From positions 32,001-96,000 of IMG/VR virus record IMGVR_UViG_3300028920_000041: 64,000 nt of DNA; one strand, 5' to 3'. The notes below the pieces were generated by a model. That model had not been told where the DNA came from and searched no databases. It worked only from the letters and a program-made list of their open reading frames with translations. A program made the translations under genes and the position numbers. Position 1 is the stretch's first letter. Every line of letters begins with the position of its first letter. Origin of the DNA: a virus. This document shows, piece after piece, positions 8,006 to 40,480 of the stretch.

Positions 8006-8098
8006 TGTCAAGACGTAGTTTCCCCCCGGTGGAACCGCGCTGTTTCGTGACTTTTGGATCTGATTCACTATGTAACGGACAATAACAAGGAGAAACAA

Positions 8099-8524
8099 AT
8101 GGGATTCAAGCGAATGAACGAAGTTGGACCCGGTGGCTACTCTGGACCCGAGAAGGTACTGAGAGATGAAAAGAAGAAGAAGAAGCCAAAGTTCGGCAAG
8201 ATCACAACCAAGAACACGAGCGATGATGAAATCTCTGTAAAGGCTCCAGCTGGGAGCATGATGGCAGACAAGCTTGACAATACGGATTTCCAAAAGGAGA
8301 TCAAAGGCGTCAAGACTTCCAAGAAGTATCCAAAGAAAGCACAAGCAAAGAGAGCGTTCCTTGCAGGCCTCATCCATAAGATGACTGGCAAGAGCGAGTC
8401 CTCGGATACAGCTAACGAGATGATTGATTTGGTACTCGAAGGCTATGATCCGTTTGACATCGTCGAGAAGTTCCCGTTCAAGAAAAAGAAGTGCAAGGAC
8501 GACGAAGAAGACGATGACGAGTAG
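8099..8524 (+). CDS. Lys-rich putative prohead-core/internal head protein with C-terminal targeting motif
   Basis: AAGGAG SD before ATG 8099; ANEMIDLVLEGYDPFDIVE motif; acidic tail. Confidence 0.7.
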   Translation: MGFKRMNEVGPGGYSGPEKVLRDEKKKKKPKFGKITTKNTSDDEISVKAPAGSMMADKLDNTDFQKEIKGVKTSKKYPKKAQAKRAFLAGLIHKMTGKSESSDTANEMIDLVLEGYDPFDIVEKFPFKKKKCKDDEEDDDE

Positions 8525-9920: not shown

Positions 9921-10562
9921 ATGACACCCGAGCTAATCACACCAAAGCCGATCATATTCATACACATACCAAGAACTGGAGGTATGTCTTTCCGTAAGAT
10001 GATGCACATTGCTTACGGCTATGACAACATAGGTAGGCCATGGTGGGGTGAGCATGAAGGCGAGTACATAAACGATAAGCAGAAGTCTAAGAAAGCTTGG
10101 TATGGTCACTTCAAGTTTGGACTACATGAGCAGATACCTTTTCCAGTCAAATACTTCACTATAGTAAGAGAGCCAGCAGCTAGGTTGCTATCTGAGTATC
10201 ATAGAAACGAGTACAGGACTCGATATAACATGAGTCCATTGGACTTGGCTAGATCTGACAGAGGCAATAACATCATGGTTCGTATGCTATCAGGTGCGAA
10301 CATGACAGACACTCTAACGATACACCATGTAGATATCGCTATGGCCAACATAGAAGAGCACTTCGTTTTCGTTGGCCAGACAGAGAAGTTTTCTGACATT
10401 ATGCGAGTAGTAAAGCGCATGGGTTGGCCTGTATCGAAACAGCCTCATGAGAACACCGGTAAGACAGAAACGATAACACTGAATGAGTTGATAGATCTAA
10501 GGAAGCTACCAGAGCTTGCCTTGGACTATGAACTATACAGGAGGGTTGCCTATGCCTGGTAG
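9921..10562 (+). CDS. Sulfotransferase (Sulfotransfer_2-like family)
   Basis: FIHIPRTGGMS (5'-PSB loop) and VREPAARLLSEY (3'-PB motif). Confidence 0.8.
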   Translation: MTPELITPKPIIFIHIPRTGGMSFRKMMHIAYGYDNIGRPWWGEHEGEYINDKQKSKKAWYGHFKFGLHEQIPFPVKYFTIVREPAARLLSEYHRNEYRTRYNMSPLDLARSDRGNNIMVRMLSGANMTDTLTIHHVDIAMANIEEHFVFVGQTEKFSDIMRVVKRMGWPVSKQPHENTGKTETITLNELIDLRKLPELALDYELYRRVAYAW

Positions 10563-11100
10563 AGTAGAGTCCATTCGACAAGTACTAAGGTCTACGTTAC
10601 TGGAGTCAACACAAGATTTTTCGAAGATGTCTAAGGATCAGCTAAAGGATGCACGTCAGATGTATCAAGACGTTATTTCCATGAATAAATCCAAGGGAAG
10701 GCCTATAAAGCAGTACTACCTTGATAATTTGAGTAGTATTGAGGCTCTTCTTTCAGGCAAGCCTAGTGGTCAAGGTGTTACTAGCGATCCTTCAGTGTTT
10801 GGGCATCCACAGCAAACTAGCCATCCTAAGTATAGAAACTTGGTTCCTGTCAAAGTAAAAACCAAGGCACAGGTTCAGAAGTTCATAGACAAAGCACAGA
10901 AGTCTTATGATTCAATAATGACTAAATGGTCTAAGGAAGAGGCTATTGCTTTAGGTAGAATCAAGGCAACACCGACACGAAGAGCTAAAGCCAAGAGAGC
11001 TATCAAGTCAAGAGACTGGATTGATCTGAAAAGCTATGCAGAGCTTATCAGAGATGAGACAATGAAAGAGCTTCAGAGGCTTTACAAGTTGGCGGGATAA
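10552..11100 (+). CDS. Putative head-packaged protein with VESIRQVLR leader
   Basis: GGAGG SD before ATG 10552; leader MPGRVESIRQVLRSTLLE. Confidence 0.7.
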   Translation: MPGRVESIRQVLRSTLLESTQDFSKMSKDQLKDARQMYQDVISMNKSKGRPIKQYYLDNLSSIEALLSGKPSGQGVTSDPSVFGHPQQTSHPKYRNLVPVKVKTKAQVQKFIDKAQKSYDSIMTKWSKEEAIALGRIKATPTRRAKAKRAIKSRDWIDLKSYAELIRDETMKELQRLYKLAG

Positions 11101-11112
11101 AGAGAGAGACCT

Positions 11113-11703
11113 ATGCCTGGTAAAGTAGAGTCCATTCGACAAGTACTCAGAGAGTCCCTTTTGAAAGAAGCCAATGATTGGGATGGTCGTTCTACAATGT
11201 TTGGACACCTTCCAAGCCAAGATCTATACTTCTCTCCAGTTGAGAAGCTAAAAAACGGTAACTACAAGGGCTATATGGTTGATGTGAGTTCGGGCCGACC
11301 AAAGAAGGCCAAACAGACCAGTATGAACAAGCGTTGGTGGTCAGAGTCCTGGAAGATAATCAGTCAAAGCGAAGTTCCAAAAACGGTGCTTAGCAAGTTT
11401 TCAGACAAAATCGAATTACAAGCGCAGAAGGCCAGCGAACCAAAGGCAGCACCAACACCTGTTAATGTTAAGTCACCGGACAAGCTCTTGACGCAGAGAC
11501 AAGCCAGGGTAGGGCTCAGAGTAGATACAGATCCAGAGAGTGAAAGCAGTAGTTGGGTGATTCGGCGTATGACAAACAAGTCTGTTACCATTGGCTCTGA
11601 TAGTGGGGTTGACGTTGGACCAAAGTTTGCTGGAAGGACATTCATGTATCGTTGGGACGGTACAGGGTTTGTTAGACAAAAACAGTACCTCTATGCGGTG
11701 TGA
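11113..11703 (+). CDS. Putative head-packaged protein with VESIRQVLR leader
   Basis: Leader MPGKVESIRQVLRESLLKE, nearly identical at DNA level to the previous gene start. Confidence 0.7.
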   Translation: MPGKVESIRQVLRESLLKEANDWDGRSTMFGHLPSQDLYFSPVEKLKNGNYKGYMVDVSSGRPKKAKQTSMNKRWWSESWKIISQSEVPKTVLSKFSDKIELQAQKASEPKAAPTPVNVKSPDKLLTQRQARVGLRVDTDPESESSSWVIRRMTNKSVTIGSDSGVDVGPKFAGRTFMYRWDGTGFVRQKQYLYAV

Positions 11704-12497
11704 CGATGCCTGATACGGTTCAAGAGTCCATTAGAGACTCTCTGAGAGCAACGCTACTTGAGGGAAGACCTGTCCCTATCAAGAAAGCCTATCTGAAAAG
11801 GCTAGCTAGGTCTCTATTTGATGAAATGTACAAAAGGTGGCTCAAACCATTTCACTTAAAGAAGCGGGATCGACCAACCAGTATATTGTTCATTGGGAGT
11901 AAAGATGGGATCCCAAGTCACCATACTATAGAGTTTACAGAGTTAGCTGGCCCCTGGAAGGGTCGCAAGAGGCAAGTTCCCATTGTCTTCCAGTTAGGAG
12001 GAACAGGGAATTTTGTAAGAAAGTACATCACAGGTGGCGGTGTCTATAGTGTGAGGCAGGGTAAACGTAGTGTTTCTAAGTACATGATCTATCTTAATAT
12101 AGCTGATACTCTTATTCTGGATTTTGTCAAGAACAAGAAACAAGTTATAGATGAGTTTTACTCTGTTTTGATACACGAAGCAACACACCTAGCAGATCAA
12201 CTCCCTAGAGTTGCTTCTGATGCAGATAACGAAGACCTAAAAATCTACTACAATAAGCCAACAGAAGTCAGAGCGTTCATGCAGCAGATTGTTGATGAAG
12301 TAGTTGCACACGCTAGGTCCATAGCGAAAGACCTTGAAGGCTTCACTGACACAGAACAGCTTGTCAGATTGTCTCTTGAGCGAAGCACGACATGGGACAG
12401 AGTCAGACCCTACGTCAACCCAAGCAACAAAAGGAAGATACTGAAAGCTGTTCATGGAGTCATAGACAGAGCCAATCTTCCAGCTAGGTATGAGTGA
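11700..12497 (+). CDS. Zincin-like metallopeptidase (HExxH) with leader peptide
   Basis: VLIHEATH...YYNKPTEVRAF; leader QESIRDSLRATLLE; ATG probably 11706. Confidence 0.7.
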   Translation: MTMPDTVQESIRDSLRATLLEGRPVPIKKAYLKRLARSLFDEMYKRWLKPFHLKKRDRPTSILFIGSKDGIPSHHTIEFTELAGPWKGRKRQVPIVFQLGGTGNFVRKYITGGGVYSVRQGKRSVSKYMIYLNIADTLILDFVKNKKQVIDEFYSVLIHEATHLADQLPRVASDADNEDLKIYYNKPTEVRAFMQQIVDEVVAHARSIAKDLEGFTDTEQLVRLSLERSTTWDRVRPYVNPSNKRKILKAVHGVIDRANLPARYE

Positions 12498-15400
12498 TGC
12501 CTGACAGAGATAAGTGGATCTATGGTAAGGGCCAGTCAAAGTCCACTGGACTCTATAAAGACGTAACGTATGCCTCAAAAGGCAGTCAACCTCACTCTAC
12601 TACTCCAGATGACTGGCCATGGTCCAAAGAAGCCAAAAAGAAGTATGGTAAGAACATAGCATTCAACAAGCCATTGCCTGAAGTGTCAGACGATGAAGAT
12701 GTTGAAGCATGGTTCAAGCGTGTTGAAAAAGAACGCAAAGAACGAGAGAGACGCTATAAGCGTGAAGTCAAGTTAGGCACAGAATGGAAGACAAGAAACC
12801 TTGACTGGATCGCAGTCCTGCCTGATGCAAGTCACCCGGGCAAGGTCCGTATACAGCGCTATGATGAAGATGGCTTCTCAGGACATACTACGTTTGACAA
12901 TCTACAGAAGCTAGTGGCCTATCTCATTGAATGGGAAACATCACTAAAGAAGGCCAACGGCACTATGGACAAGTTCAGCAAGACAGCCCGATGGAAACGA
13001 GGCATGAAAAGACTAGCAGCGTTTCACACCAAAGAGTCTAGTGTTGAAGATCTTGTTGATAGGATAGACCAGTTACTTGAGAGAGCGGCGCGAATAAAGC
13101 CTATCCTTATGTTCCATGGTACGGCTTCCAAGAATCTTCGTTCAATACTCAAAAAAGGCTTTGTGCCGAATCCTAAAGAAAGGGTTTGGCAAGATGATCC
13201 AAATGCGGCACAGTCCTACCAGACAGTTACTAGAAAGACTGTAGGAGGTACCTATTTCTCTACTAACTTAAACGTAGCTACATCATCAGCATTAACAGCA
13301 GCACAAAAGTCCAAATCAGAGCAGTTGGTTATTGTTGCCAAGATACAGCCGAGAAGTGGTTATGCTGATGAAGACGACATTATTCATGATGCAAAACGCG
13401 GTATGAAGAAAGCCATGTTTCCATCTGGCCACATAGGGCATGAGGAAGCCTGGCCGCGGCGGTGGATAGAATTTGTTACGAGTCCGGGTGAAGCAAAGAA
13501 AGCTATCCAGAAGTTTGCTAAAGAGTTCAAGGTAGGTCTTGAGGCAGATCTACCTCAAGTAAAAAAGATACCCTTAGCTCCAAAAGCAGTAGAAGATATG
13601 TTTTGGGGTCTTTTAGAGCAAGTTGTAGCAAAGTGGTACTCGTATAACAAAAAGATGCCGTATGGTGCAGACTACTACGCAGCTACTAAGAGACTGAATC
13701 TCAGTAGAGAGCAAGAGCACAAGTACTATGCGTTGGTCTTGAAAAGGCTAAAGAGAGTCAGTTTGCAGAAGGCAGAAAAGCGCTACCTTAGTGCTGCAGA
13801 TAAGCTAACCAGACAGTTAAGCAAGTTAGCTATACCGAAGCCAGATGCTTTTAGAACGAATGTGAGGATCACAGACCCTGTCAACTTCAGGGGTAAGAAC
13901 AAGATTATTGCTGTGTTTGAGATGCGTAGTGGTGAGGACTATAAAGAAGATATCAAAGTCCACTATGGTAAGATCCCTTCAGAGGTAAAGAGCGCTCTTA
14001 ACCAGAATCTTGGGGACTGGCGTGAGGTTGATAAGTTTGAAACGTCTAGTTGGTGGACTAAGGCAAATAATGAGTCTGCTATGACTTTTTCAGATCCAAA
14101 GACGACACAAGAAAAGAAAGCTCTGAAGATGAACCGAAAGAAGTCAGAACAACAGCTCATCTCGAAGATTCAGAGCTTCATAGGTGACACTAATGAGGAA
14201 ACTCGACATAATACTAGGGTTCATGTTCGCTATGATAACAGCAGCACTGATCTACATAATCATGTCACTGAACTAGCAATAGGCAAGTTCAACTGGAAGC
14301 CTCTAAGAGATACGCCTATCGGTCCAGTCAAAGGCTATGAAGCAACCGGTTCGCTAAAGGGTAGGGCGAAGATTGAAAAGCGAAAAGTTGGAAGAGCACA
14401 GCGCTGGTTTTTGGTGTTGGATGGTAAGGACTATCCAATGCCTGGCAAGAAAGCGTCACTGGACCATGCCGAAGGGACTATAAAGAAAATGCTAGAATCA
14501 ACAGCCCTAGATCTTATTGAGCAAGTCATTCAAGGCGAAAGTCCATCGGAGTTGATTGAAAAGGTCAGCTACGCTTATGACATTCGACTTGACCAGAACA
14601 TACGAACTGGACCCGTGGTAAAGCTCACTAGCGGTCATTTCGGCGTAGCGAGTGCTCACAACTACGCCACAGAGTATGTGTGCGAAGCTAAGAAGGTCAA
14701 AGCAGTATGGTCGAAAGGTGCTACCAGAGCTTCTATAAGAAAGTGGCCTTTGACTGGCCGTAAAGCAGACCAATACAAAGATGGTACTTGGGCATGGGTA
14801 ACAAAGCTTGTCGATAATTGGAGTTCATCCAGTACGCGAAGACCTAAGCTTGTGATCAATGTTTTGGTATGGGACATGGATGGTAAACCTGTGCATAAAA
14901 AGCTTGGGCAGGAATTCACAGCGAAGGACTTAAAGGCAGCAAAGAGCTATGCAAAGAAGCTTATAGAGGATGGATTGTCTAGAATGACTAGTGTTGAGGG
15001 TAGGGTTATTATGCCTTATGAAGAAGATCAAATTGTTAATTTTGGGACTTTCGAACCTGCTAGGTCGTATGGGGAGGCGTTGAACGAAGTACGTAAGAAG
15101 CGAACACCATTCTATCAGATGGGTAAGGATGCTTTTGAGTCAGGTGTCAAGAGTCCAGCACCTATACTCAATAAGAAGGTGTTTGGTAAGATCTCAAAGA
15201 TAAAGTCAGACAAAGAACGTATGAAAGCAATGAAGGACTATCAAGATGGATGGCAACAAGCCAACCTAGATTCTCCACTTTCAGAGTCTATTGATGAAGC
15301 TAAGGGTAAGAAGCGCAAGGTTGGTGGTAGAATGGAGTATGCTCTAAGAGCTGCAGCAGATCATGGTATTACTGCCGGTGGTTCTTTTGCTTCATTTTCC

Positions 15401-15511
15401 TTGTTTCACAAAATGAGGGAAGCAGAGCTTATACATCCTCCAGGTTCAGGAGCTTGGAAGATCACAGATAAAGGTAAGCAAGCGCTCAAAGATGGGTTCT
15501 ACTACGCTTGA
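12494..15511 (+). CDS. Large multi-module (polyvalent-like) protein containing an ADP-ribosyltransferase-fold domain
   Basis: 1005 aa; MFHGTASKNLRSILKKGF...GGTYFST (ART-fold His and aromatic motifs); internal leader-like peptides. Confidence 0.7.
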   Translation: MMPDRDKWIYGKGQSKSTGLYKDVTYASKGSQPHSTTPDDWPWSKEAKKKYGKNIAFNKPLPEVSDDEDVEAWFKRVEKERKERERRYKREVKLGTEWKTRNLDWIAVLPDASHPGKVRIQRYDEDGFSGHTTFDNLQKLVAYLIEWETSLKKANGTMDKFSKTARWKRGMKRLAAFHTKESSVEDLVDRIDQLLERAARIKPILMFHGTASKNLRSILKKGFVPNPKERVWQDDPNAAQSYQTVTRKTVGGTYFSTNLNVATSSALTAAQKSKSEQLVIVAKIQPRSGYADEDDIIHDAKRGMKKAMFPSGHIGHEEAWPRRWIEFVTSPGEAKKAIQKFAKEFKVGLEADLPQVKKIPLAPKAVEDMFWGLLEQVVAKWYSYNKKMPYGADYYAATKRLNLSREQEHKYYALVLKRLKRVSLQKAEKRYLSAADKLTRQLSKLAIPKPDAFRTNVRITDPVNFRGKNKIIAVFEMRSGEDYKEDIKVHYGKIPSEVKSALNQNLGDWREVDKFETSSWWTKANNESAMTFSDPKTTQEKKALKMNRKKSEQQLISKIQSFIGDTNEETRHNTRVHVRYDNSSTDLHNHVTELAIGKFNWKPLRDTPIGPVKGYEATGSLKGRAKIEKRKVGRAQRWFLVLDGKDYPMPGKKASLDHAEGTIKKMLESTALDLIEQVIQGESPSELIEKVSYAYDIRLDQNIRTGPVVKLTSGHFGVASAHNYATEYVCEAKKVKAVWSKGATRASIRKWPLTGRKADQYKDGTWAWVTKLVDNWSSSSTRRPKLVINVLVWDMDGKPVHKKLGQEFTAKDLKAAKSYAKKLIEDGLSRMTSVEGRVIMPYEEDQIVNFGTFEPARSYGEALNEVRKKRTPFYQMGKDAFESGVKSPAPILNKKVFGKISKIKSDKERMKAMKDYQDGWQQANLDSPLSESIDEAKGKKRKVGGRMEYALRAAADHGITAGGSFASFSLFHKMREAELIHPPGSGAWKITDKGKQALKDGFYYA

Positions 15512-15526
15512 TATGGAGTTAGTAAC

Positions 15527-16621
15527 ATGACTCTTGCCAGTGATTTGATTGAAGCTGTCTTGAACGAGATTCCTGCATCTATTGTCTTAGGCTCCATTTG
15601 TGAAGTAGCCCATCAAGATGAGTTTTCCAAGATAGCTTTCAGGTTGGTCAAGTCTAACAAAGGCAACTGGAAGAGTGAAAAGCAAGCTCTGTTCTTGCTC
15701 GACAGTGCCACTGGTTTTAGCAAAAGACTTCTAGCACACGAGTCCGGGCTAGCGAAAGATTGGCTCAAAAAGAAAGGCTACAAAACAGACAATCTAGTAG
15801 CTTTAGCGTGGGCAAAACAGCTCAAAGGCTATGGTACGAGAGATCCAAGCAAGGTCCGTTACTCAGGTACTATTGTGGCCTTTGATGAGGTTGGTGTAGT
15901 ACTGATTGGTACTGTCAAAGTCATTCACCAAAAGCAGGGTGTGAAGCAGCAAAAAGGCTCAAGCCTAGATTTCAGCCGAGTCACTGTCAAGTATGAGAGA
16001 CCCAAGAGCCATAAGCCTACCGTTGTTATCAACTACTACAACAGACCCGTGGACTCAAAGACCATTGAAGTCATCAAGGGCATACCTGGCTATCAGAACC
16101 ACAGAATTCTGGTTAGCTTCCTTGATCAGCTAAACGACCATAAGAAGCTCTCACCAAAGCAGATGGTTGTCTTGAACAAGTTCTTACCGGAGCCGAAAGA
16201 CACCGGCATAGGGACCAAACAAGATCTACAGAAGGAACTAGAGACATTCTTCCAGTTGATACGAACCAAGTGTGTGCCTGTTGTCGTGGAAGGTGCTAAG
16301 GAGTTCGGTTGGAAGATCACAGAGGCTGATATTTCAAAGGACTGGACAAGCTTTGAGAAGGGAGCTAAGTATGATTTTTCTTCATCGGTGAAGCATGTTC
16401 AGACGTTGATTGTTCGTCTCTTTGAGAATGCTAGTGGTAGGCCAAAGAAGCTCTACAGTCAGACTTTCCTTCACGACACGAGAGACAGAGTCAAACGTGC
16501 TATCAAGATGAAGACACCAGGCAAGAGTCACGTTGAAGCCATTGCTGATATGCGATGGCTGAATAAAGCCTTAGAGAGGGTATCTGTGTCTAAGATACGA
16601 ACAGCGATGCAGCTTGATTAA
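15527..16621 (+). CDS. Putative head-packaged protein with N-terminal targeting motif
   Basis: MTLASDLIEAVLNEIPASIVLGSICE; GGAG SD. Confidence 0.65.
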   Translation: MTLASDLIEAVLNEIPASIVLGSICEVAHQDEFSKIAFRLVKSNKGNWKSEKQALFLLDSATGFSKRLLAHESGLAKDWLKKKGYKTDNLVALAWAKQLKGYGTRDPSKVRYSGTIVAFDEVGVVLIGTVKVIHQKQGVKQQKGSSLDFSRVTVKYERPKSHKPTVVINYYNRPVDSKTIEVIKGIPGYQNHRILVSFLDQLNDHKKLSPKQMVVLNKFLPEPKDTGIGTKQDLQKELETFFQLIRTKCVPVVVEGAKEFGWKITEADISKDWTSFEKGAKYDFSSSVKHVQTLIVRLFENASGRPKKLYSQTFLHDTRDRVKRAIKMKTPGKSHVEAIADMRWLNKALERVSVSKIRTAMQLD

Positions 16622-16632
16622 CGGAGAGACCT

Positions 16633-16977
16633 ATGGACTTGGTAGATCGCATCCAAGAGTTCTTAGAGGAAGACTTGAGGACTCTTTTCCCAAAAAGACA
16701 GTTCAAAGGATGGAAGTCAAGCAAGAGCAAAAAAGACTTCATTTGGTACACCAAAGGAGATTATGTCTTCAGGCTCGAAGATGATGGTAATGCTGTGTCT
16801 ATCTTTTTGCAGTGGCCTGCATCGTTAGGTGATAGATTCGTTCCATCCGGCCGTAGTTGGATGGCAAGCAAGTCTGGCAACAAGTACTCTTTGTCTACTG
16901 ACTCCGATGAAGAGACTTGGAGTGATGATGTAGCTACCTTGAAAAAGATCATGAAACTGTTTATCTCCAAGGCGTAA
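16633..16977 (+). CDS. Putative head-packaged protein
   Basis: Leader MDLVDRIQEFLEE (cf. EDLVDRIDQLLE inside the 1005-aa protein); GGAGAG SD. Confidence 0.65.
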   Translation: MDLVDRIQEFLEEDLRTLFPKRQFKGWKSSKSKKDFIWYTKGDYVFRLEDDGNAVSIFLQWPASLGDRFVPSGRSWMASKSGNKYSLSTDSDEETWSDDVATLKKIMKLFISKA

Positions 16978-16983
16978 TCAAAG

Positions 16984-17337
16984 ATGAGAGTATCTGCAAA
17001 ACTGCATCAGTCAATCCAGGCTCTAGGTCTTATGCTAGAGTTGAATCGAGTAGCACAGTCAAGGTCGTTTGATGAAGCGAAGCAGCAATTAGCAGATCTA
17101 AAGAGCAAGGCTAAGCAGAACTTCAAAGAGCTATCGCTAAAGCATCATCCCGATGTTGGTGGTGATGAAGAAACCATGAAGCTACTATCTGCAGCGTATG
17201 ACGAGATCAAGAAAGTTGACATAAAACAAGCACAGCCAAGGCCTGTTGCTCAAGTGGTTCGTGTTTATTGTGGTGGTGTGTACTCAACAACTAGCACTTG
17301 GCCCACAGGCAGCACAACCTCAACAAGCGGTTGGTGA
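16984..17337 (+). CDS. J-domain (DnaJ-like, class C) protein
   Basis: KQNFKELSLKHHPDVGGDEETMKLLSAAYDEI with an intact HPD motif. Confidence 0.85.
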   Translation: MRVSAKLHQSIQALGLMLELNRVAQSRSFDEAKQQLADLKSKAKQNFKELSLKHHPDVGGDEETMKLLSAAYDEIKKVDIKQAQPRPVAQVVRVYCGGVYSTTSTWPTGSTTSTSGW

Positions 17338-20842: not shown

Positions 20843-21169
20843 ATGCCCAAGATAGACAAAAAGAAAGCTAAGAAGGTCTACAACAAGTTGATGATGTCAG
20901 CGGCTTCTCTTAGCCCAGCGATGGTAGATCAAATTAGGCTCTTGTATTCTCTACTGTCCGGCCAAGTCGAAGACACAAGAAAGAGCTATCTTGTGAGGGT
21001 ACTCAGCGGCGAAGAGCCTGCAGACCTAATCAATGAGCTGACTACGTCTGCAAATAGCCTTGCAACCAAGATACCCAAGCCAATGGGTATGATCAAAAAG
21101 ACTCGAAAGAAAGACAAAATCATCAAACCAGCCGAGGCGAAGAAGCTTGGGCTAGACTTGAATGGATAA
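20843..21169 (+). CDS. Basic protein with internal targeting motif
   Basis: YLVRVLSGEEPADLINEL; Lys-rich ends. Confidence 0.65.
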   Translation: MPKIDKKKAKKVYNKLMMSAASLSPAMVDQIRLLYSLLSGQVEDTRKSYLVRVLSGEEPADLINELTTSANSLATKIPKPMGMIKKTRKKDKIIKPAEAKKLGLDLNG

Positions 21170-21172
21170 CAA

Positions 21173-21418
21173 ATGACGCCAGAACAGAGACGAACCGGGA
21201 ACATCGCAGCACTATATGGGTACAAGGTTCATGAAGACACGGTAGCTGCTGAATCATTTTCTCCAGGTGATGGTGCTATCGTTTTGACAGCAAAAGGTGA
21301 GCCTGTGATGTCAGGTACCATAGAAGAGGTCAAACCTGGTAACGATATGATGGCAGCTTCAATCAAGATAGGTGATATGTGGTACTATGAAGGACAATAC
21401 AAATTCAGAGATCTGTAA
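21173..21418 (+). CDS. Hypothetical protein (small beta-barrel-like)
   Basis: 81 aa, operon spacing. Confidence 0.6.
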   Translation: MTPEQRRTGNIAALYGYKVHEDTVAAESFSPGDGAIVLTAKGEPVMSGTIEEVKPGNDMMAASIKIGDMWYYEGQYKFRDL

Positions 21419-21421
21419 TTC

Positions 21422-21691
21422 ATGACGACAAGTACAAAGCTAATTGATTTACGTGTTTCTGGGACATCTGCTAAGTACTTGGTAGACGCTTTGTTAGAAG
21501 AGCTTCCCCCTCCGGATGTGATCAAAAGAACCATTCTTAGGGACCTTCCAAAGAGCCTGGTTATTGTTAAAGAGGATGTTGTCTACATAGAATGCAGCGA
21601 TCGACAACTGCTAGCCTCAACACTCCCGCTCTTTGAACATATGTATCCTGAACTTGACTTTGTCAACTTAAACAAGACAGACAAAAGATAA
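21422..21691 (+). CDS. Hypothetical protein
   Basis: 89 aa; SAKYLVDALLEE resembles the leader motif. Confidence 0.55.
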   Translation: MTTSTKLIDLRVSGTSAKYLVDALLEELPPPDVIKRTILRDLPKSLVIVKEDVVYIECSDRQLLASTLPLFEHMYPELDFVNLNKTDKR

Positions 21692-22581
21692 TGGAGAGAA
21701 TCATGCAAGACAGAATGTCCCTGATCGAAGAGCAAGTAGAAGGTTTGATTGATCTCGTTCTGGACGGGGAAGATGCGAATGACTTGATGGAAGGTGTGTA
21801 TAGTGAGATTAACGAGGGTCCTGGTAACGGTCCTTATCACATCGGCTCTAAGGTCAAAGTCAATACAGGTTGGTCCGGGCAAGGAATCGATGGAAGCAAC
21901 GTCAATGTGTCCAAGGGCGACGTTGTCTCTGTTGTCTTGGCTAACTTAGGTGAGGAAGGCCAGGATCGTATGGTCCTCTTAGCAGACGGTAAGACCCGTG
22001 TAGTGGTTCCGTTTGCTATCTTGGGTGAAGGCCTCGAAGAGCAGAGCATGATGCATGGCCCAAAGGGACATGTTGTTAAATCTGCCAAAGGCAAGCTAGG
22101 TGGTATGGTCCAAGGCAGAGCACAGGGTGATGCGACAACTCCTGAACAGAGCATGTTAAAGCCAATTCCGGGCACTCGTAAGCCAAGCTCTCTGCAGTCC
22201 AAATCCATTGGTAAAGCAAAGCCAAAGGGTGACCCAACAGCCCAGATGCAAGGCCAGATGGTACCTTCTACTATCTCTGGAAAGACAGTAGAGCAAGTAG
22301 TGGATGAAGTTCTTTCCAGGTTTGAAGAAATCAGTGAAAAAGACGCTAGTGCACAGTCGCTAAGCGAAATGTTGGTTTCTGAAGATGATGAGATCATGTA
22401 TGCCATTATGCATGAGGCTCTCTTTGGTGAAGGTGAGTGCACACTAGATACTCTGCAGGGACTTGCAGAGATGATGAAAGACAAAAAGAAGAAGAACAAG
22501 AAAGACGATGACGAAGAAGGATACACTGAAGAAGACATTGACGAGATCTTCAGTGCTATGCACGAAGCATCGATGAGTTAA
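21691..22581 (+). CDS. Acidic putative prohead core protein with SH3/KOW-like segment
   Basis: EGLIDLVLDGEDANDLME motif; HIGSKVKV...KGDVVSV beta segment; K/D/E tail like that of 8099. Confidence 0.65.
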   Translation: MERIMQDRMSLIEEQVEGLIDLVLDGEDANDLMEGVYSEINEGPGNGPYHIGSKVKVNTGWSGQGIDGSNVNVSKGDVVSVVLANLGEEGQDRMVLLADGKTRVVVPFAILGEGLEEQSMMHGPKGHVVKSAKGKLGGMVQGRAQGDATTPEQSMLKPIPGTRKPSSLQSKSIGKAKPKGDPTAQMQGQMVPSTISGKTVEQVVDEVLSRFEEISEKDASAQSLSEMLVSEDDEIMYAIMHEALFGEGECTLDTLQGLAEMMKDKKKKNKKDDDEEGYTEEDIDEIFSAMHEASMS

Positions 22582-34471: not shown

Positions 34472-34607
34472 TATTTTGGATTACCTCAAGATCATAGGGT
34501 TTGTAGCTGTTTGTTTGTTGATAGCTGTTCTTATTGCACTTATTGGAATTTACGTTTCAGATAAAAGAGACGAAAAGAAGATAAAGAAGATCAGGAGACG
34601 AAGATGA
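34455..34607 (+). CDS. Small single-TM peptide (50 aa), paralogue B
   Basis: MITNPDILDYLKIIGFVAVCLLIAVLIALIGIYVSDKRDEKK... Confidence 0.6.
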   Translation: MITNPDILDYLKIIGFVAVCLLIAVLIALIGIYVSDKRDEKKIKKIRRRR

Positions 34608-35029
34608 GTGCCTTTTGCCGTATCAGAGCAAACGACGTAGCCGACATTTCCAGACTGGCTCTAGCCAGAGGCCTTGAGCATAACATCATGCCGTTTGAAG
34701 GAGATGACTACGCTGATTGGGTTACGGTTCAGTTAACCAATGATAGAAGCCGCAGAGCTTTCGAGAATCTGTGTGCTGAAAACAACGTTACGGTTGACGG
34801 TAGGCAGGTGATCCACCGTATGACCGATGCTGTGCTAGCAGGCACTTCTCCAGAGCGTGCAATGGATGAAGCTCTAACAGGCGGCATGAAACGAGCTATG
34901 ACAAACGGAGCTAAGTATACCTGTGGTGATTGCGGTTTGCCGATCCCTAGGTACAGAGGCAGGTACCCTACTACTTGCCCGGAGTGCAATGGCGAGTTGA
35001 CTCCACCCCATGAAAGACCGGCAGAGTAG
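34604..35029 (+). CDS. Protein with targeting motif and C-terminal Zn ribbon
   Basis: RMTDAVLAGTSPERAMDEAL; CGDCG...CPEC. Confidence 0.65.
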   Translation: MSAFCRIRANDVADISRLALARGLEHNIMPFEGDDYADWVTVQLTNDRSRRAFENLCAENNVTVDGRQVIHRMTDAVLAGTSPERAMDEALTGGMKRAMTNGAKYTCGDCGLPIPRYRGRYPTTCPECNGELTPPHERPAE

Positions 35030-35038
35030 GAAACTCCT

Positions 35039-35905
35039 ATGGAACACCTAAAGAGCGTTATCCGTCAAAGTATTTTAACTGAAAGCTTCCTAAAAGAAGA
35101 CGATGCAGGTGATCCACCCAAGACGCTCAAAGTCAAAGACACAGCCGGTAAAGATGTTCTGAGCTACTTCTATAGCGGTGTACTGGATAACTACAAGCTA
35201 AAGCCTGATCAAGTCATGGCCATGATAGGTGGTGGTGACATTGATAAAGGCAAACAGATGTTCGTTGCCAACTTCAACACACTTCGTAAAGCGGCGAGCA
35301 GTAGTGGCAAGCCTCCCAGAGCTTGGATGCCTGTCATAAAACCTAATGACATACCAGGCCTTGTAAGAGCGCTCAAAGCAGGCCAGATAGACATCGCTAT
35401 CCCGCATGCAGATCTCAAGAAGAAAACAGAGAGCTTTCTATCAGCGTTGAATGACATGTTGACAGAGGCTCCAAAGTATAAAGACAAAGAGATTGATATG
35501 GCTAAAGGCAAAGGACAGCCTAAGCCAGCGCCTGACAAAAAGACCTTTCTCAAGAAAGGGACTATGGACAATGTCAAAGCTGATGACATTGTCAGAGGCA
35601 TCAAAGTTGCTGAGATACCGGTTAAGCAGCTAAAGCCGTCTCAAGATGAAATCTATGGATCTAAGATTGCTTTGAACATGACAAAGATGGGACCAACGGT
35701 AGGTGGCAAGACTGCTTTTGGTGAGCCTGACATCATTGTTACTTCAGATAACTACATACTAGATGGTCATCATAGGTGGGCTACAGCGTGGGCCGGTCAC
35801 CCAAGCAACAAGATAAAGGTTACTGTGATCCCACTGCCACTAAAGCACCTGTTCTTGGTTCTGAGAGCATATGGTGCAGCACTTGGCAATCCACAGCAGT
35901 CCTAG
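35039..35905 (+). CDS. ParB/sulfiredoxin-like domain protein with leader
   Basis: LKPSQDEI...IIVTSDNYILDGHHRW; leader MEHLKSVIRQSILTE. Confidence 0.75.
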   Translation: MEHLKSVIRQSILTESFLKEDDAGDPPKTLKVKDTAGKDVLSYFYSGVLDNYKLKPDQVMAMIGGGDIDKGKQMFVANFNTLRKAASSSGKPPRAWMPVIKPNDIPGLVRALKAGQIDIAIPHADLKKKTESFLSALNDMLTEAPKYKDKEIDMAKGKGQPKPAPDKKTFLKKGTMDNVKADDIVRGIKVAEIPVKQLKPSQDEIYGSKIALNMTKMGPTVGGKTAFGEPDIIVTSDNYILDGHHRWATAWAGHPSNKIKVTVIPLPLKHLFLVLRAYGAALGNPQQS

Positions 35906-35914
35906 GAGATAACA

Positions 35915-36223
35915 ATGGTTGCTGAAAAGATGATCGAAGCAGTACTCGAAGGTAACACTGCTGAAGATGTTATGACTCAAACTCTTTCAGAGAAGAGCGA
36001 AAGAGTACATACCATCTGGCGTCATATACCCGATGACTGGAAAGCACAGTTTGAAAAAAAGAAGCTTAAAAGGAAGTCTGGCGAAGATGAAGTGATCACC
36101 ATGATACCTGACTATGGCGAAGTATCAGCCGGTAAGGGTATGTTCAAGCTAAAGACAATAGAGCCAGGAAAAGCGTCAATCAGAAAAGTCATCAGAGGCC
36201 TAACCGGAATGCAGAAGTGGTAG
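35915..36223 (+). CDS. Putative head-packaged protein
   Basis: MVAEKMIEAVLEGNTAEDVMTQTLSE; AGGAG SD. Confidence 0.65.
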   Translation: MVAEKMIEAVLEGNTAEDVMTQTLSEKSERVHTIWRHIPDDWKAQFEKKKLKRKSGEDEVITMIPDYGEVSAGKGMFKLKTIEPGKASIRKVIRGLTGMQKW

Positions 36224-36233
36224 GGGATCTATT

Positions 36234-36944
36234 ATGAACGAAACTATACTAGATGTTATCAGTAAGAATCTTGTAGTAGAAGCAACATCACTTCAACCTG
36301 TAACAAGGACTTTTAAGAGGTTTTTGAAATCAAAGGTTGTTCCTTATCTAACCAGATCCACAGGGCAGGAGTGGCAGGTTTCTAATCTTGGAGGTAAGTC
36401 TTCTGGAAGGTTTGTAAAATACTATGTCAATACAAACGGATCTCCAAGGTTAGAAATTAGTTGGGAGTTTGAAGTTGCTAAAGCTGCAAATGAAGATGAG
36501 TTCAACCTGAGAATTTACTTCACCAAGGACAATAACATACTTGGTCAGTATATTTATGGAGTTCAGGGGCAAGGTAATAGCTATATTAAACAAAACGATT
36601 TGAAAGACTTAAATAAGTTGGTTCCAGAAGTGATTATAACCGCTATAGAAGGATCAAAAGTTACTACAGTTCCCACTAAAGAGATTGAAGCTATAACTAA
36701 AGAGATTGAAGCTATAAAATCATTATCAGAAAGCTTGGATAGAACTTTATCTAAAGTTCAAAACTTTGTTCCAAAGTTTAATGATATAGTTAAAAAAGCT
36801 CTTAAATCTAAAGATCCGCAGAGGGAATTAGTTAATAGCTATAAACTTCTTTCTAGCATAAAAAAGACTCATCTCAGCGGGTATATATCACCACCGGATA
36901 GATCAGCTAAGAGTATACTTGAGCGTATTAAAGATCTATCTTAG
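36234..36944 (+). CDS. Putative head-packaged protein, AT-rich gene
   Basis: Leader MNETILDVISKNLVVEA; 21-bp tandem repeat at 36675-36716. Confidence 0.65.
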   Translation: MNETILDVISKNLVVEATSLQPVTRTFKRFLKSKVVPYLTRSTGQEWQVSNLGGKSSGRFVKYYVNTNGSPRLEISWEFEVAKAANEDEFNLRIYFTKDNNILGQYIYGVQGQGNSYIKQNDLKDLNKLVPEVIITAIEGSKVTTVPTKEIEAITKEIEAIKSLSESLDRTLSKVQNFVPKFNDIVKKALKSKDPQRELVNSYKLLSSIKKTHLSGYISPPDRSAKSILERIKDLS

Positions 36945-36961
36945 GCTAAATAAAAATCAAC

Positions 36962-37308
36962 ATGACAGCTCAAGAGAGAGACAAGTTCGCAAGAGCAGTA
37001 TTCGACGGTTCGTTCTTCCAGTACTGGAAGCTAAAGGACATGACTACTCTGGCGATGAAGACATAAACAGTAACTTTCCCATTGTTGCTAGACGGATGAA
37101 AGAGGAAATAGACAAATACGATGTCTGGCAAGTGTACTTCACAAAGCACATGATGGCTATCGAGACATGGCTAGAAGACAGGGAAGTCAAGAGTGAGCCG
37201 ATCCACATGAGAATAGTGGATGCTATTAACTATCTCATCATCTTATGGTCTATGGCAGCAGACCAAGGCCTTATGCCAAGTGCTATAGACGTACCTCAAC
37301 AAATGTAA
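36962..37308 (+). pseudogene. Nucleotide-modification-associated (DUF1599/Nmad-like) protein, apparently frameshifted
   Basis: VLEAKGHDYS...NF...VYFTKH...SEPI..RIVDAINYL in one frame; natural N-terminus MTAQERDKFARAVFD in another; one base short near 37006. Confidence 0.55.
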
Positions 37309-37318
37309 AGGATCTACC

Positions 37319-37912
37319 ATGCCGCCTGCAATGGTTAAGAAATGGGCCAAAGAAAAGGGTATGAGTACCAAAGAAGCAGAACGCAGGTGGGCCAAAGCTA
37401 AGCTACTCGCTTCAAAGCAAGGTCGCAATCCAGAAATCACTGGTGTTAACAAAGACTGGGAGTATGTAGTCGGTATATACAGAACTATGATGAAAAAGAA
37501 GCCTAAAACAGAGTCTCTGATACACAAAAGTTTAATCGAGACAATGATCGACCAAGTACTGAACGGCAAGTCTCCCAGTCAATTGATCCATAGTTTCTTT
37601 GCAAGTAGTTCGTCAGACAGTACACCGATTCGGGAAAGTGATAACACTATCAACGTTGGCGATAGCTACGTCCAAAACAAAAATTTGCGTACATTTTTCG
37701 ACGGTGAGGGAAAACTTAGGTTTTGCACTACCGAGAATGTACTAATCAGGCCAAACAGTGATCCTCGATTATTAGAACTTGTTGCATACGCTGACTGTTT
37801 GAGTGTTGATAACCCTCTGTTTGATGTGTTTGAGTCTTACGAGGGTTCGTTAGAAGATTTGTATGATCAAGTAACAAGTGCATACTCTTTGGTAACACAA
37901 ACAGGTGCATAA
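37319..37912 (+). CDS. Conserved phage protein (MPxxxVKxWAK...WxKAK) fused to targeting motif
   Basis: N-terminal helical domain, then LIETMIDQVLNGKSPSQLI. Confidence 0.65.
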   Translation: MPPAMVKKWAKEKGMSTKEAERRWAKAKLLASKQGRNPEITGVNKDWEYVVGIYRTMMKKKPKTESLIHKSLIETMIDQVLNGKSPSQLIHSFFASSSSDSTPIRESDNTINVGDSYVQNKNLRTFFDGEGKLRFCTTENVLIRPNSDPRLLELVAYADCLSVDNPLFDVFESYEGSLEDLYDQVTSAYSLVTQTGA

Positions 37913-37913
37913 A

Positions 37914-38426
37914 ATGCTAGTTGGACAAGAATACACAGTCATTGGTTGGTGTAAGAACAGACTGATTTTGCGTGACAAGATCATGTTGCAAAATCTACTA
38001 GAGGAAGTCTGTTTTGTTATTGACATGACATCGCTCGGATCTATCGGAGTTAATGTTCCTATCGAACTTGACAAGTTGAACAAAGATAAATTCGAAGATG
38101 AAGGTGGTTCTACGTCTTGTGTTCTGGCTGGAAGAGTAGACGCGAATCAAGCTTCACTGGTCTTGTCTACCAGTCACGCAAACATTCATGGCTGGCCAGA
38201 CAGAGACGTTAATAGAGATGATGGTGGCTTCTTTTGGTTTACGGTAGGTTCCTGCAGGCCTTTTAAGACAATGAAAGTTGATAACTGGCTACATGAGTAC
38301 TTGAAAGCTACTCACGTAAAGCGGATCTCCAGGTGGATTGAGTACAAGGATGGAGTGTTCATGCACTCCGAACAAGGCCTCCCTTCAGGAATTGGAGTAT
38401 CTTCTGAACAAGGATTCATAGGATGA
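37914..38426 (+). CDS. Hypothetical protein
   Basis: About 170 aa, ATGA overlap with the next gene. Confidence 0.55.
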   Translation: MLVGQEYTVIGWCKNRLILRDKIMLQNLLEEVCFVIDMTSLGSIGVNVPIELDKLNKDKFEDEGGSTSCVLAGRVDANQASLVLSTSHANIHGWPDRDVNRDDGGFFWFTVGSCRPFKTMKVDNWLHEYLKATHVKRISRWIEYKDGVFMHSEQGLPSGIGVSSEQGFIG

Positions 38427-38737
38427 TCACAGCACAAGAGCTTATAGAGAACTATCTGACTTCTGATATGGATGCAGAGGAAGTTATTGATGAAGTCATT
38501 GGACGCAGTAAAAGAACGTTTCGTAGACCTAGAAAACGAAGGTTCAGGAAGCGTGGCTCTGCTGTAGATCCTATCACCGGAAAGAGGAAAGACCCGCGCC
38601 GTAGGCGTCTAATGCGCAAAGTACGTAGACGCTTCAAGTCCAAGTTCAAGCGTGCAGCAAAGCTTAGGGCGAGAAAGCTCAAGTCCAGAGGCTTCTATAA
38701 GAAGCTTGGCAAGCTTGCCGCTCGCATCCGTCGATAA
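38423..38737 (+). CDS. Very basic prohead core protein (T4 gp68-like position and composition)
   Basis: Acidic leader MITAQELIENYL..DAEEVIDE, then an R/K-rich body; just upstream of the protease. Confidence 0.6.
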   Translation: MITAQELIENYLTSDMDAEEVIDEVIGRSKRTFRRPRKRRFRKRGSAVDPITGKRKDPRRRRLMRKVRRRFKSKFKRAAKLRARKLKSRGFYKKLGKLAARIRR

Positions 38738-39001
38738 ATGCCAAGATACTACAAACCAGTAGATCCAAAATACATCATCAAGATTGATGTCTTGGAACTA
38801 CCTCAAGTCTATGCAGCAGGTGAAGGACAGTACGAGCTAAGGCAAGCTGATACTCCAGATAAGTATGAACTACATGATCTATTCTCACTTAAAAGAACGT
38901 TGAAAACGATAATGCCGAAACGAGTTGATGACATCTTGTGTCGGCTGCAGAACTTCAGAGTTGCCTATTTGAATGTAGCAACCGGAGAAATTACGTCATG
39001 A
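38738..39001 (+). CDS. Hypothetical protein
   Basis: 87 aa; ATGA overlap with the protease start. Confidence 0.6.
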   Translation: MPRYYKPVDPKYIIKIDVLELPQVYAAGEGQYELRQADTPDKYELHDLFSLKRTLKTIMPKRVDDILCRLQNFRVAYLNVATGEITS

Positions 39002-40437
39002 CACAACTTGTTGAGGTACAGCCTTTTAACTATGCAATCGTTGAAGGGAAGGCTAAGCCTGGAGTCCTTTTGACTCTGGAAGGGACTTTTCAACGGGCTG
39101 GTACAAAGAACGCTAACGGTAGGATCTATCCGTTGCCTCTTTGGAAAAAGTTGATGTCTGATGAAGATGTCAACGAAAGGATCCAAGCCAGAAGGATGCT
39201 TGGCCACTTGGACCATCCTTCAAGTGGTGCGACTTCTCTAAGTTGTGTGTCTCACGTAGTTACAGAGCATAAGCTTCAAAGCGATGGCAGTGTAAAGGGT
39301 AAGCTTGAAATACTTGATACACCAATGGGTCAGATTGCTTCTACACTTGCTAAAGCAGGTGTTCAGTTCGGTGTGTCTTCAAGGGGTGATGGTTCTGTCG
39401 AAAGGAAAGGAGATGTAGACGAAGTACAGAACGATTATCGACTAGAAACGTATGATCTTGTGTTAAAGCCTTCGACTCCAGGCGCTTACCCTCAGATTGT
39501 TGAGTCAGAGGAAAAAGCAAAGGAGAATCTAGATCTCATCGCACAAGCAGTTGAAGGACTTGTCAATCGCACTAATGAAGTTGATGTGCTATTAGAGTGT
39601 CACAAAATAATCAGTGTCCTGGAAGGCTGCAACGAGCGTCGAGAGCAGATCTTAGCCGAGCTAAAGACAAAGCTTGGTACTGGTCAAGAGGAACAAGAAA
39701 AAAGAGAAACTCACGATTCGGAGGGACTAAAGATGACGGGAACTAATGCTGTTCCGAATGCTCCGACTGCTACGCCACAGCTTACAATTTCTCCTGAGAT
39801 GAAAGACTATCTCCAGGAATGGGTTGATAAAGGTGTGGAGGAAGCCGTTGCAGCTAAGAACGAAGAGATTAACGATTTGAACGAAAGGATCGTTGGTCTG
39901 GTCAATGAACGAGATGAGCTTGTTTTACGTATGGGTGCGGCTGAGCAGTTGATCGAGGAGTTCACTCGTAAGGTCAAATCTCTGAGTGACAATCGCACTA
40001 CAGACGAAGAGCTTCACGAAAGGTTTGACGCTTCTGTGTCATTGCTTGATGAAGCGATGTCAAGGTTGCAGGAGCTAGGCGAGACGCAGAGGCGTTTAGC
40101 TGCAGCCGAAGAGCTTCTTCAGGCTTCTATTTGTCGAGCGCAAGTGGAGTCTGTTGCAGCTAGCATTGAAGAGAAGATAGAAGACCTTGACGAATCAACG
40201 CAAGAGACGCTTAGGACGTTGCTTGAGGACTGCGAATCTGCCGAGGAAGTAGATAGCAAGTTTTCTCAGCTTGAGAGTCTGATTGAAAGCCAGAGTGATG
40301 GTTTTCCGGAGCCTGTTGTCAGGGAACCGCTGCCATCCAGAACAGGGAATCTGACAGAAGACCAGATCGGTAACGCTCGTTCGAACGGACCTAAAGACTT
40401 CATTACCAGTAGGCTTCTTTCGAAGATTGCTGGTTAA
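38998..40437 (+). CDS. gp21: Prohead protease (T4 gp21-like) fused to C-terminal scaffold-like coiled coil
   Basis: NANGRIYP, GHLDHP, GVSSRGDGS, YDLVLKPSTPGAY motifs; long acidic coiled coil; GGAG SD before ATG 38998. Confidence 0.9.
   Translation: MTQLVEVQPFNYAIVEGKAKPGVLLTLEGTFQRAGTKNANGRIYPLPLWKKLMSDEDVNERIQARRMLGHLDHPSSGATSLSCVSHVVTEHKLQSDGSVKGKLEILDTPMGQIASTLAKAGVQFGVSSRGDGSVERKGDVDEVQNDYRLETYDLVLKPSTPGAYPQIVESEEKAKENLDLIAQAVEGLVNRTNEVDVLLECHKIISVLEGCNERREQILAELKTKLGTGQEEQEKRETHDSEGLKMTGTNAVPNAPTATPQLTISPEMKDYLQEWVDKGVEEAVAAKNEEINDLNERIVGLVNERDELVLRMGAAEQLIEEFTRKVKSLSDNRTTDEELHERFDASVSLLDEAMSRLQELGETQRRLAAAEELLQASICRAQVESVAASIEEKIEDLDESTQETLRTLLEDCESAEEVDSKFSQLESLIESQSDGFPEPVVREPLPSRTGNLTEDQIGNARSNGPKDFITSRLLSKIAG
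39733..40437 (+). CDS. Nested in-frame scaffolding protein (gp22-like), predicted internal start
   Basis: TCGGAGGG SD 7 nt before the in-frame ATG 39733, at the protease/coiled-coil boundary. Confidence 0.55.
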   Translation: MTGTNAVPNAPTATPQLTISPEMKDYLQEWVDKGVEEAVAAKNEEINDLNERIVGLVNERDELVLRMGAAEQLIEEFTRKVKSLSDNRTTDEELHERFDASVSLLDEAMSRLQELGETQRRLAAAEELLQASICRAQVESVAASIEEKIEDLDESTQETLRTLLEDCESAEEVDSKFSQLESLIESQSDGFPEPVVREPLPSRTGNLTEDQIGNARSNGPKDFITSRLLSKIAG

Positions 40438-40454
40438 GGTCAAAGACGACAACA

Positions 40455-40472
40455 CACAAGTTAAATCAACTT
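40455..40472 (+). promoter_or_regulatory. CACAAGTT hairpin upstream of the MCP SD
   Basis: CACAAGTT-AAATC-AACTT directly followed by CGGAGG. Confidence 0.5.
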
Positions 40473-40480
40473 CGGAGGAC

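Follow-up and report, generated by a model that had tools for sequence, protein, structure and literature searches.

The window analysed here is a 64,000-nucleotide (nt) stretch, positions 32,001 to 96,000, of the 120,930-base IMG/VR virus record IMGVR_UViG_3300028920_000041, which is estimated to be 57% complete, and the subject of this report is a gene in it that encodes a multi-module protein, P0001. The protein appears to be a chain of folded modules, one of them with an ADP-ribosyltransferase (ART) fold, and the peptides that join the modules are predicted to be short, acidic and helical, of the same kind as those heading free-standing small proteins of this and related phages. The source is an uncultured myovirus with a genome estimated at about 200 kb, and the record also encodes tail sheath and baseplate hub genes.

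The reading frame 12494-15511 (+) is open over 1005 codons, as the original prediction described it; its start and length require correction. The likely gene is 12497-15511 (+), beginning at ATG 12497 and encoding 1004 amino acids (aa), because the TGA stop (12495-12497) of the upstream open reading frame (ORF) overlaps this ATG as TGATG, the N-terminus of every close homologue is MPDRDKW, and the database copy of the protein (P0004) is 1004 aa long. Residue numbers throughout count the GTG at 12494 as residue 1. The motif strings quoted in the original prediction were all recovered in place, with ESSVEDLVDRIDQLLE at aa 181-196 (13034-13081), FHGT at 13112-13123, GGTYFST at 13244-13264 and ESTALDLIEQVIQGESPSELIE at aa 668-689 (14495-14560). 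The gene lies in a co-oriented block of ORFs bearing such peptides as tags, about 23 kb upstream of the prohead protease and capsid protein genes and on the same strand.

Modular organization of P0001

The full-length structure model has a mean predicted local distance difference test (pLDDT) of 71. It is ordered at residues 70-158, 204-515, 520-564, 626-648, 656-695 (a hairpin), 737-857, 894-923 and 968-1000, and disordered at 1-65, 565-624, 693-731, 869-895 and 922-967, so that at least five separately folded modules are predicted. Two of them, the ART module (~198-515) and the module at 737-857, exist elsewhere as free-standing genes beginning with the peptides that are internal here. The model and these homologues support the description of P0001 as a chain of separable modules. 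An origin by fusion of once-separate tagged cargo genes predicts free-standing module genes that start with peptides internal here, as observed, and this proposed origin is well supported by the comparison of the sequences.

The plus-strand gene begins with a conserved segment (aa 2-63; 12497-12682; invariant DWPWS..YG.N.A, ending in LPE63), delimited from alignment A2 and predicted to be disordered (pLDDT <50). Module 1 (aa 70-158; 12701-12967), a helix/beta-sheet/helix unit delimited by homologues and model, is common to P0006 and P0018; its weak structural match to a PUR repeat (Z 4.9), obtained with the full-length model, was treated as chance. The ART module (aa 201-515; 13094-14038), delimited by structure model, structure search and alignment, is preceded by leader 1 (aa 180-198; 13031-13087) and followed by module 3 (aa 520-650; 14051-14443), for which alignment and model give two helices, a disordered stretch at 565-624 and three strands, with the conserved junction DP..(Q/D)EK.ALK.N. 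Leader 2 (aa 670-690; 14501-14563) runs directly into a conserved core segment (aa 691-731; 14564-14686; VSYAYDIRLDQNI..GPV.K, ending in VCE731), which alignment and model predict to be disordered.

Module 5 (aa 737-857; 14702-15064), delimited by homologues and model, is predicted with confidence as an alpha/beta domain. It has no family in PHROGs or NCBIfam, and its match to a kinesin motor fragment (Z 5.7), again obtained with the full-length model, was likewise treated as chance. Elsewhere this module occurs as free-standing proteins of 135-188 aa, three of which (P0009, P0155 and P0157) carry the hairpin tag of leader 2 at the N-terminus, and a fourth (P0012) a short leader-like N-terminus. 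A helical segment and disordered basic linker (aa 859-944; 15068-15325), placed by the site map and model and containing LNE865, LSE931 and IDE935, leads to a small C-terminal module (aa 945-1005; 15326-15508) with a weak Mrr_N-like winged-helix match in Pfam; by alignment, the same module is found in P0005, where it directly follows VCE|AK. P0001 fits the description of a polyvalent protein in uniting disparate domains in one polypeptide, one of them with a predicted activity, and a Pfam scan found no MuF, portal or peptidase domain in it.

The ART-fold module

The AlphaFold2 model of aa 185-520, built with a 45-member alignment, has a pLDDT of 88.5 and a predicted template modelling score of 0.85. 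In a Foldseek-independent VIA-align search of 48,161 PDB chains, the NAD lobe of KptA was the top match (Z 9.7, root mean square deviation (rmsd) 2.4, 85 residues aligned), and about 36 of the next 40 matches are ARTs. These include TreX, pertussis S1, Arr, PARP16, PltA, DarT and others at Z 5-7.6, and an Rhs ART toxin, PARP13, Scabin, LT, CARDS, DT and pierisin also occur in the list. The full-length model repeats the result, KptA scoring Z 9.7-9.9 across models. Foldseek against the PDB gave weak E-values (0.09) with match probabilities of 0.9-0.97, and no match at E<=0.001 for either model; a Foldseek match to the cyanophage A4 pre-ejectosome was dismissed (probability 0.12-0.14, rmsd 26). 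The pLDDT of the module, the rank of KptA and the near-complete occupation of the top matches by ARTs allow the model to be read with confidence as an ART-superfamily domain at aa ~201-515, as originally predicted for this segment. A helical insert of about 150 aa (aa 294-446; 13373-13831), evident from the secondary structure of the models, interrupts the ART core after strand 4 and ahead of the C-terminal strands.

The ART catalytic motif consists of H or R on strand 1, Y or S-x-S on strand 2 and an acidic residue on strand 5. Residues H208, G209, G222, W232, Y254, D292, E293, D294, R458 and I471 are invariant across the 45 sequences; H208 lies within FHGT and Y254 within GGTYFST, and both align to the HG[ST] and Y positions of PARP and Tpt1. 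Because H, Y and DED are invariant in 45 diverse family members, a working enzyme is favoured, and the modelled module is probably an active NAD+-using enzyme.

The best matches by structure and profile are Tpt1/KptA enzymes (e.g. 9ld3, 6ede). The 45-member profile matches Tpt1/KptA (E 5e-5), PARP1 and DarT in the PDB at the shared motif YHGT..L..IL..GL.P, whereas the helical insert and the invariant DED are specific to the present family. Tpt1/KptA is a two-lobe enzyme in which the N-terminal RNA-binding lobe carries the catalytic Arg-His-Arg-Arg tetrad. Identity with it was rejected, as only the C-terminal NAD lobe (chain residues from ~87 or ~91 to 180) aligns and the N-terminal lobe is absent; by profile, PTS_2-RNA is far below cut-off and the NCBIfam equivalog models score 16-21 bits against ~235. 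Membership of the PARP catalytic domain (PF00644) was also rejected for P0001, which scores 17.6 bits as a whole and 20.2 bits as the module alone, in a match at FHGT, against a gathering cut-off of 26.7 bits. The sister proteins P0005 and P0007 pass this cut-off at 27.6 bits, and weak PARP matches occur in 23 of the 45 family members.

No family in Pfam, PHROGs or NCBIfam covers the module and no Pfam ART model exceeds its cut-off; no exotoxin-type or Alt-type ART match was obtained in the Pfam scan of P0001, and phmmer with the whole protein against PDB sequences gave no match. An exhaustive HMMER search places the family at 775 representative clusters at 50% identity, most members being free-standing proteins of 300-340 aa that match P0001 residues ~195-510. 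By these comparisons the module represents an undescribed ART-fold family absent from domain libraries. The module is not related to T4 Alt: the site here is of the H-Y-acidic type (H..Y..DED), and Alt, like ModA and ModB, was rejected as an identity since these enzymes belong to the R-S-E clade defined for Alt-type ARTs (PMC5512222).

Leader peptides

Leader 2, delimited by a hidden Markov model (HMM) of the tag and by the structure model, is a predicted acidic helix-turn-helix of 21 aa containing LIE676 and LIE689; the full-length model shows helices at 656-679 and 684-695 with a turn between them. The tag HMM was trained on 15 copies of the pattern taken from other phages' proteins, the window's own protein being excluded, and was run against a six-frame translation of the complete 121-kb record. 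It matches P0001 at aa 670-690 with an E-value of 7.6e-7 (25.4 bits), which bears out the second internal leader that had been proposed at 14495-14560. Nine further ORFs, all on the + strand, are matched at 8408, 37541, 21739, 9135, 20996, 35921, 34826, 38471 and 15536. Their E-values start at 5.9e-6 and reach 1.4 and 3.3 in the two weakest matches (38471 and 15536). Four of these (34826, 35921, 37541 and 38471) lie directly upstream of the prohead protease.

The same tag forms the exact N-terminus of the free-standing ART homologues P0013, P0095, P0134 and P0011, as well as that of the module-5 homologues named above, and is repeated two or three times within sister polyproteins. Because it is N-terminal on unrelated free-standing proteins and internal in sister polyproteins, the tag is to be regarded, from its sequence distribution, as a portable element independent of what follows it. 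Within the record, small ORFs carrying it are found in 34604-38737 and in 20843-22581 (20996 and 21739), the tag being mid-protein in some. The 156-aa ORF 8054-8524 has a strong copy (E 5.9e-6) near its C-terminus, with about 15-20 residues after it, which is the reverse of the leader layout.

Leader 1, delimited by homologues and model, is a predicted amphipathic helix with LLE196, just before the first ART strand. Structural matches of the ART module start at aa 199-205, mostly at 201, and the leader 1 helix therefore lies outside the core. Free-standing ART homologues begin at leader 1, with Met, about 10-20 helical residues, hydrophobic-x-Glu and then a basic ..KP motif. The catalytic His has a hydrophobic-x-Glu site 8-15 residues ahead of it in 106 of 138 representatives of the family (77%), against a background of 17%, and 24 of 26 internal copies have such a site.

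Exchange of modules among related proteins

Five sister proteins (P0005, P0006, P0007, P0029 and P0140) share two segments with P0001, namely the N-terminal ~60 residues and the tag with VSYAYDIRLDQNI..GP..K, and the modules between them differ from sister to sister. The core segment is invariant in all six family members, P0006 and P0007 ending just after it. The best-conserved parts of the polyprotein family are the two disordered segments (12497-12682 and 14564-14686) and not the modules, and the architecture can be described, from alignment and model, as two conserved unstructured segments with swappable folded modules between and after them. Both segments may serve to bind a partner in the capsid, portal or scaffold.

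P0007, P0029 and P0140 each have a Tad3 module, which scores 43-48 bits against a Pfam cut-off of 27 and comes immediately behind an ALIE|A junction. Of the 119 profile positions, only 6-65, the N-terminal half, are matched. P0029 has a GNAT module, P0005 a second ART-like module, and P0029 and P0140 an HExxH module, which in P0029 reads HELGH and is metallopeptidase-like. Basic repeats occur in P0006 and P0140. Tad3 and GNAT are known counter-defence or effector modules, and their presence in the sisters fits an arsenal of early-acting effectors.

The boundaries of the exchanged modules are similar. The C-terminal module is preceded by IDE|AKGKKRKVGG in P0001 and by VCE|AKPKKRKVGG in P0005, and module 5 by VCE|AKKVK in P0001 and by VNE|SKK or LDE|AKVKV in its free-standing forms. 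Modules thus appear, on alignment, to recombine at hydrophobic-x-Glu | Ala/Ser-Lys boundaries.

P0018, a 576-aa protein from JGI, shares the module at 80-177 with P0001 at 62% identity; beyond it are two stretches with ART-like YHAT / FHAS ... GTYVS motifs, and several ART-like modules may therefore sit in one chain. P0005-P0007 and P0011 come from Logan contigs of up to 74.8 kb. No sister locus was found when viral and metagenome contigs were searched with P0001, P0005, P0155 and alignment A2, and tblastn against 50,697 phage records gave matches in two Stenotrophomonas phages only, the jumbo phages RAS14 and CM1. The ART homologue of RAS14 (OP752703.1, L016 5995-6765), a hypothetical protein, is 256 aa long and has the YHAT variant of the motif and, at its N-terminus, a helix with LLNE|A.

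Processing enzyme and candidate cleavage sites

The T4-type head machinery expected for this phage is present. The ORF at 38938-40437 (+) encodes a 499-aa prohead protease of the Peptidase_S77 (T4 gp21) family (PF03420, 61.8 bits; cut-off 27 bits), presumably the enzyme that does the processing; its S77 domain takes up roughly the first 200 aa. Its tail of about 300 aa is a long acidic coiled coil rich in L-x-E sites, and from its sequence the ORF looks like a protease-scaffold fusion that would combine the gp21 and gp22 functions in one gene. The major capsid protein (40427-41902, +) belongs to the Gp23 family by Pfam, has an N-terminal propeptide region and shares no more than 36% identity with the capsid protein of any cultured phage.

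The NES, LNE and LSE sites pointed out in the original prediction are all present in P0001, NES falling outside the L/I-x-E rule. The junction sites E63, E196, E593, E676, E689, E731, E865, E931 and E935 lie in low-confidence or disordered parts of the model; those at 375, 476 and 825 are enclosed in module cores with pLDDT >=95. As judged from the model, the signal of the candidate cut sites lies in their position and not in their number.

Free-standing members of the ART family occur on 14 IMG/VR contigs. An S77 protease is encoded in all five of these contigs that are at least 45% complete, the four contigs without one being 12-37% complete, and in six of six large phage genomes with a family member, RAS14 included.

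Neighbouring genes

Immediately downstream of P0001 is a free-standing ORF (15527-16621, +), matched weakly by the tag HMM at 15536, that has a tag-like leader at its start (MTLASDLIEAVLNE...SICE). It is followed by another (16633-16977, +) that starts with MDLVDRIQEFLEE and shares the 6-mer DLVDRI with leader 1. The 117-aa ORF at 16984-17337 has a weak J-domain match including the HPD motif (PF00226, E 0.001, below cut-off).

Just upstream of the polyprotein gene, a third leader class, MPG[RK]VESIRQVL...LLE, heads three consecutive and otherwise unrelated ORFs (10552-11100, 11113-11703 and 11706-12497), and a decayed form, MPDTVQESIRDSL...LLE, is also found there. The last of the three ORFs holds a HEATH (HExxH) motif. 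A sulfotransferase-family protein (9921-10562; PF03567, E 2.4e-7; phrog_3347) with no obvious tag lies inside the same block of cargo-type genes.

Discussion

The most likely reading, to which we assign a probability of about 0.5, is that P0001 is a capsid-cargo polyprotein. The tags would dock the chain to the prohead core during assembly. The prohead protease would then cut after Glu at the exposed junction hydrophobic-x-Glu sites (E63, E196, E676/E689, E731, E865 and E931/E935), and the freed modules would be injected with the DNA, the ART modifying a host protein or nucleic acid. We infer packaging, cleavage, injection and the target of the enzyme, the first two by analogy with T4.

Capsid targeting of T4 internal proteins was reportedly treated by Mullaney and Black in 1996. 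In T4, internal proteins and foreign fusions reach the prohead by means of a targeting sequence of 10 N-terminal residues, which is afterwards taken off. The gp21 protease recognises L/I-X-E and cleaves behind the Glu, and Asp in place of this Glu prevents processing while leaving targeting intact; Alt, an ART carried in the head, loses material from both of its ends (PMC9026906). The present phage resembles T4 in having a gp21-family (S77) protease with a gp23-family capsid protein, in the short N-terminal peptides ending in hydrophobic-x-Glu that head many unrelated small proteins, and in an NAD+-using enzyme as the predicted cargo. It differs in that the tags are reiterated within one 1004-aa chain from which several mature products are predicted, whereas T4 cargo is single-module, and in that the main tag is a 21-aa helix-turn-helix and not a 10-residue peptide.

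Polyvalent proteins with ART modules are likewise predicted to be packaged and injected, their processing being ascribed to their own peptidase domains (PMC5512222; PMC9503650). The resemblance to those described by Iyer, Burroughs, Anand, de Souza and Aravind in 2017 lies in the disparate modules of one chain, with ART as the commonest enzymatic module there, in the mosaic nature of the sister proteins and in the predicted head packaging and injection (PMC5512222). In contrast, the described proteins are thought to be anchored by MuF/portal-type domains, with any cutting left to their built-in peptidases, whereas the punctuation of P0001 is the general cargo tag of the phage and is proposed to be read by the prohead protease. 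P0001 would thus merge T4 capsid targeting with polyvalent effectors, and we did not find a polyvalent chain punctuated by a general cargo tag described.

A number of observations weigh against this reading. Knowledge of the phage is limited to a metagenomic contig. P0001 has 10 L/I-x-E sites against 7.6 +/- 2.5 in shuffles, which is no enrichment. Some copies of the tag in the genome are mid-protein or C-terminal and some are without the terminal Glu, and the tag therefore need not mark a cut. Leader 1 is less secure than leader 2. Its DLVDRI identity with the ORF at 16633 is real but near chance, as 5% of shuffles give a 6-mer match to some ORF N-terminus (p~0.05), and a generic profile of the short pre-ART leader had no discriminating power, missing even leader 1 and ORF 16633. 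The comparison with homologues supports leader 1 better than the 6-mer does, yet the peptide may simply be the ART family's own N-terminal helix, because P0011 carries this type of helix together with a separate hairpin tag. The co-occurrence of S77 proteases with the ART family is only suggestive, S77 being common in large myoviruses, and the RAS14 homologue lies between GMP reductase and thymidylate synthase genes and not among head genes. In the ART module, D292-E293-D294 follow strand 4 and the invariant R458 occupies the strand that normally bears the catalytic Glu, so that the position of the Glu equivalent is uncertain. Finally, an activity can be assigned to this module only, and for the others the term effector modules would be a conjecture.

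The flat site count and the non-terminal copies of the tag would suit a packaged polyvalent protein that stays essentially whole, the tags being docking helices or relics of fusion, with at most the ends trimmed and the modules acting in cis. Precedents exist: polyvalent proteins of 2-15 domains are common, some being packaged unprocessed or thought to be self-processed by built-in peptidases (PMC5512222), and the same source cites the N4 virion RNA polymerase as reported to be packaged whole. In SPN3US, the mapped prohead-protease cuts, self-cleavage aside, all remove N-terminal propeptides (PMC10052503). Such a whole protein is less likely than a cut chain, though likelier than the alternatives considered below. 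If S77 removes the tag from free-standing proteins, an exposed identical internal tag should be cut as well; moreover, the junction sites fall in disordered or low-confidence stretches, and modules appear to recombine exactly at the hydrophobic-x-Glu | Ala/Ser-Lys boundaries.

SPN3US and phiKZ are also instructive for the cargo-polyprotein reading, being large myoviruses with many head-internal ejection proteins a T4-related protease, a short x-x-Glu cleavage motif and long propeptides cut at several sites (PMC10052503, PMC5694885). They differ in that multi-enzyme chains are not described there and in that the motif is A/S/G-x-E and not L/I-x-E.

Small ORFs next to the protease on its upstream side, where T4 has its core proteins gp67 and gp68, also bear the tag, which raises the further alternative of a structural protein of the prohead core or inner body. 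Its segments and tags would build or size the scaffold, the pieces being degraded or expelled, and the ART-like domain would be structural or inactive. T4 gp67 and gp68 are themselves cut into fragments that mostly leave the head (PMC9026906), and the conservation of the unstructured segments above all other parts of the polyprotein would suit such a role. The invariance of H, Y and DED argues instead for a working enzyme, and free variation of modules among sisters, Tad3 and GNAT included, is unexpected for a scaffold, which makes this alternative improbable.

Equally improbable is a cytoplasmic multi-domain enzyme made during infection and never packaged, with the leader-like peptides as ordinary helical linkers or oligomerisation motifs: the nucleotide-metabolism setting of the RAS14 homologue and the closest structural match, the NAD lobe of an RNA-repair enzyme, speak for it, but the module has no counterpart of the N-lobe to which Tpt1 owes its RNA phosphotransferase activity, the tag is found on at least ten unrelated ORFs clustering with head genes, free-standing homologues begin exactly with it, and the gene lies in a co-oriented tag-bearing block upstream of the head module on the same strand.

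Injected pre-packaged proteins act before phage gene expression and are the first answer to host defences. T4 IPI and Alt and P1 Dar aside, we are aware of few examples. If the cargo-polyprotein reading is extended to the lineage, the ~21-aa tag could be both a loading address and a protease punctuation mark, so that counter-defence arsenals would be strung together in a single gene, shuffled at the tags and delivered along with the DNA before expression; this strategy is proposed tentatively for the dsDNA phages of the lineage. With similar reserve, the arsenal would comprise the undescribed ART family, Tad3-like Thoeris inhibitors and acetyltransferases. Tad3 (Pfam PF25185) is an inhibitor of the ThsB protein of type I Thoeris (PMC13728456). 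It has been described as a free-standing protein, in contrast to its occurrence above the Pfam cut-off as a module of the sister polyproteins; P0001 itself has no Tad3 module.

If the cargo-polyprotein reading is true, the tag together with hydrophobic-x-Glu would provide a sequence rule for finding capsid cargo in uncultured T4-type giant phages, and the polyprotein route would deliver several effectors in a fixed ratio. Tad3-type Thoeris inhibitors would be deliverable ready-made, and a large unannotated ART-fold family would be added to those known. The tag could also become a means of packing capsids with foreign proteins, a use already made of the T4 targeting sequence.

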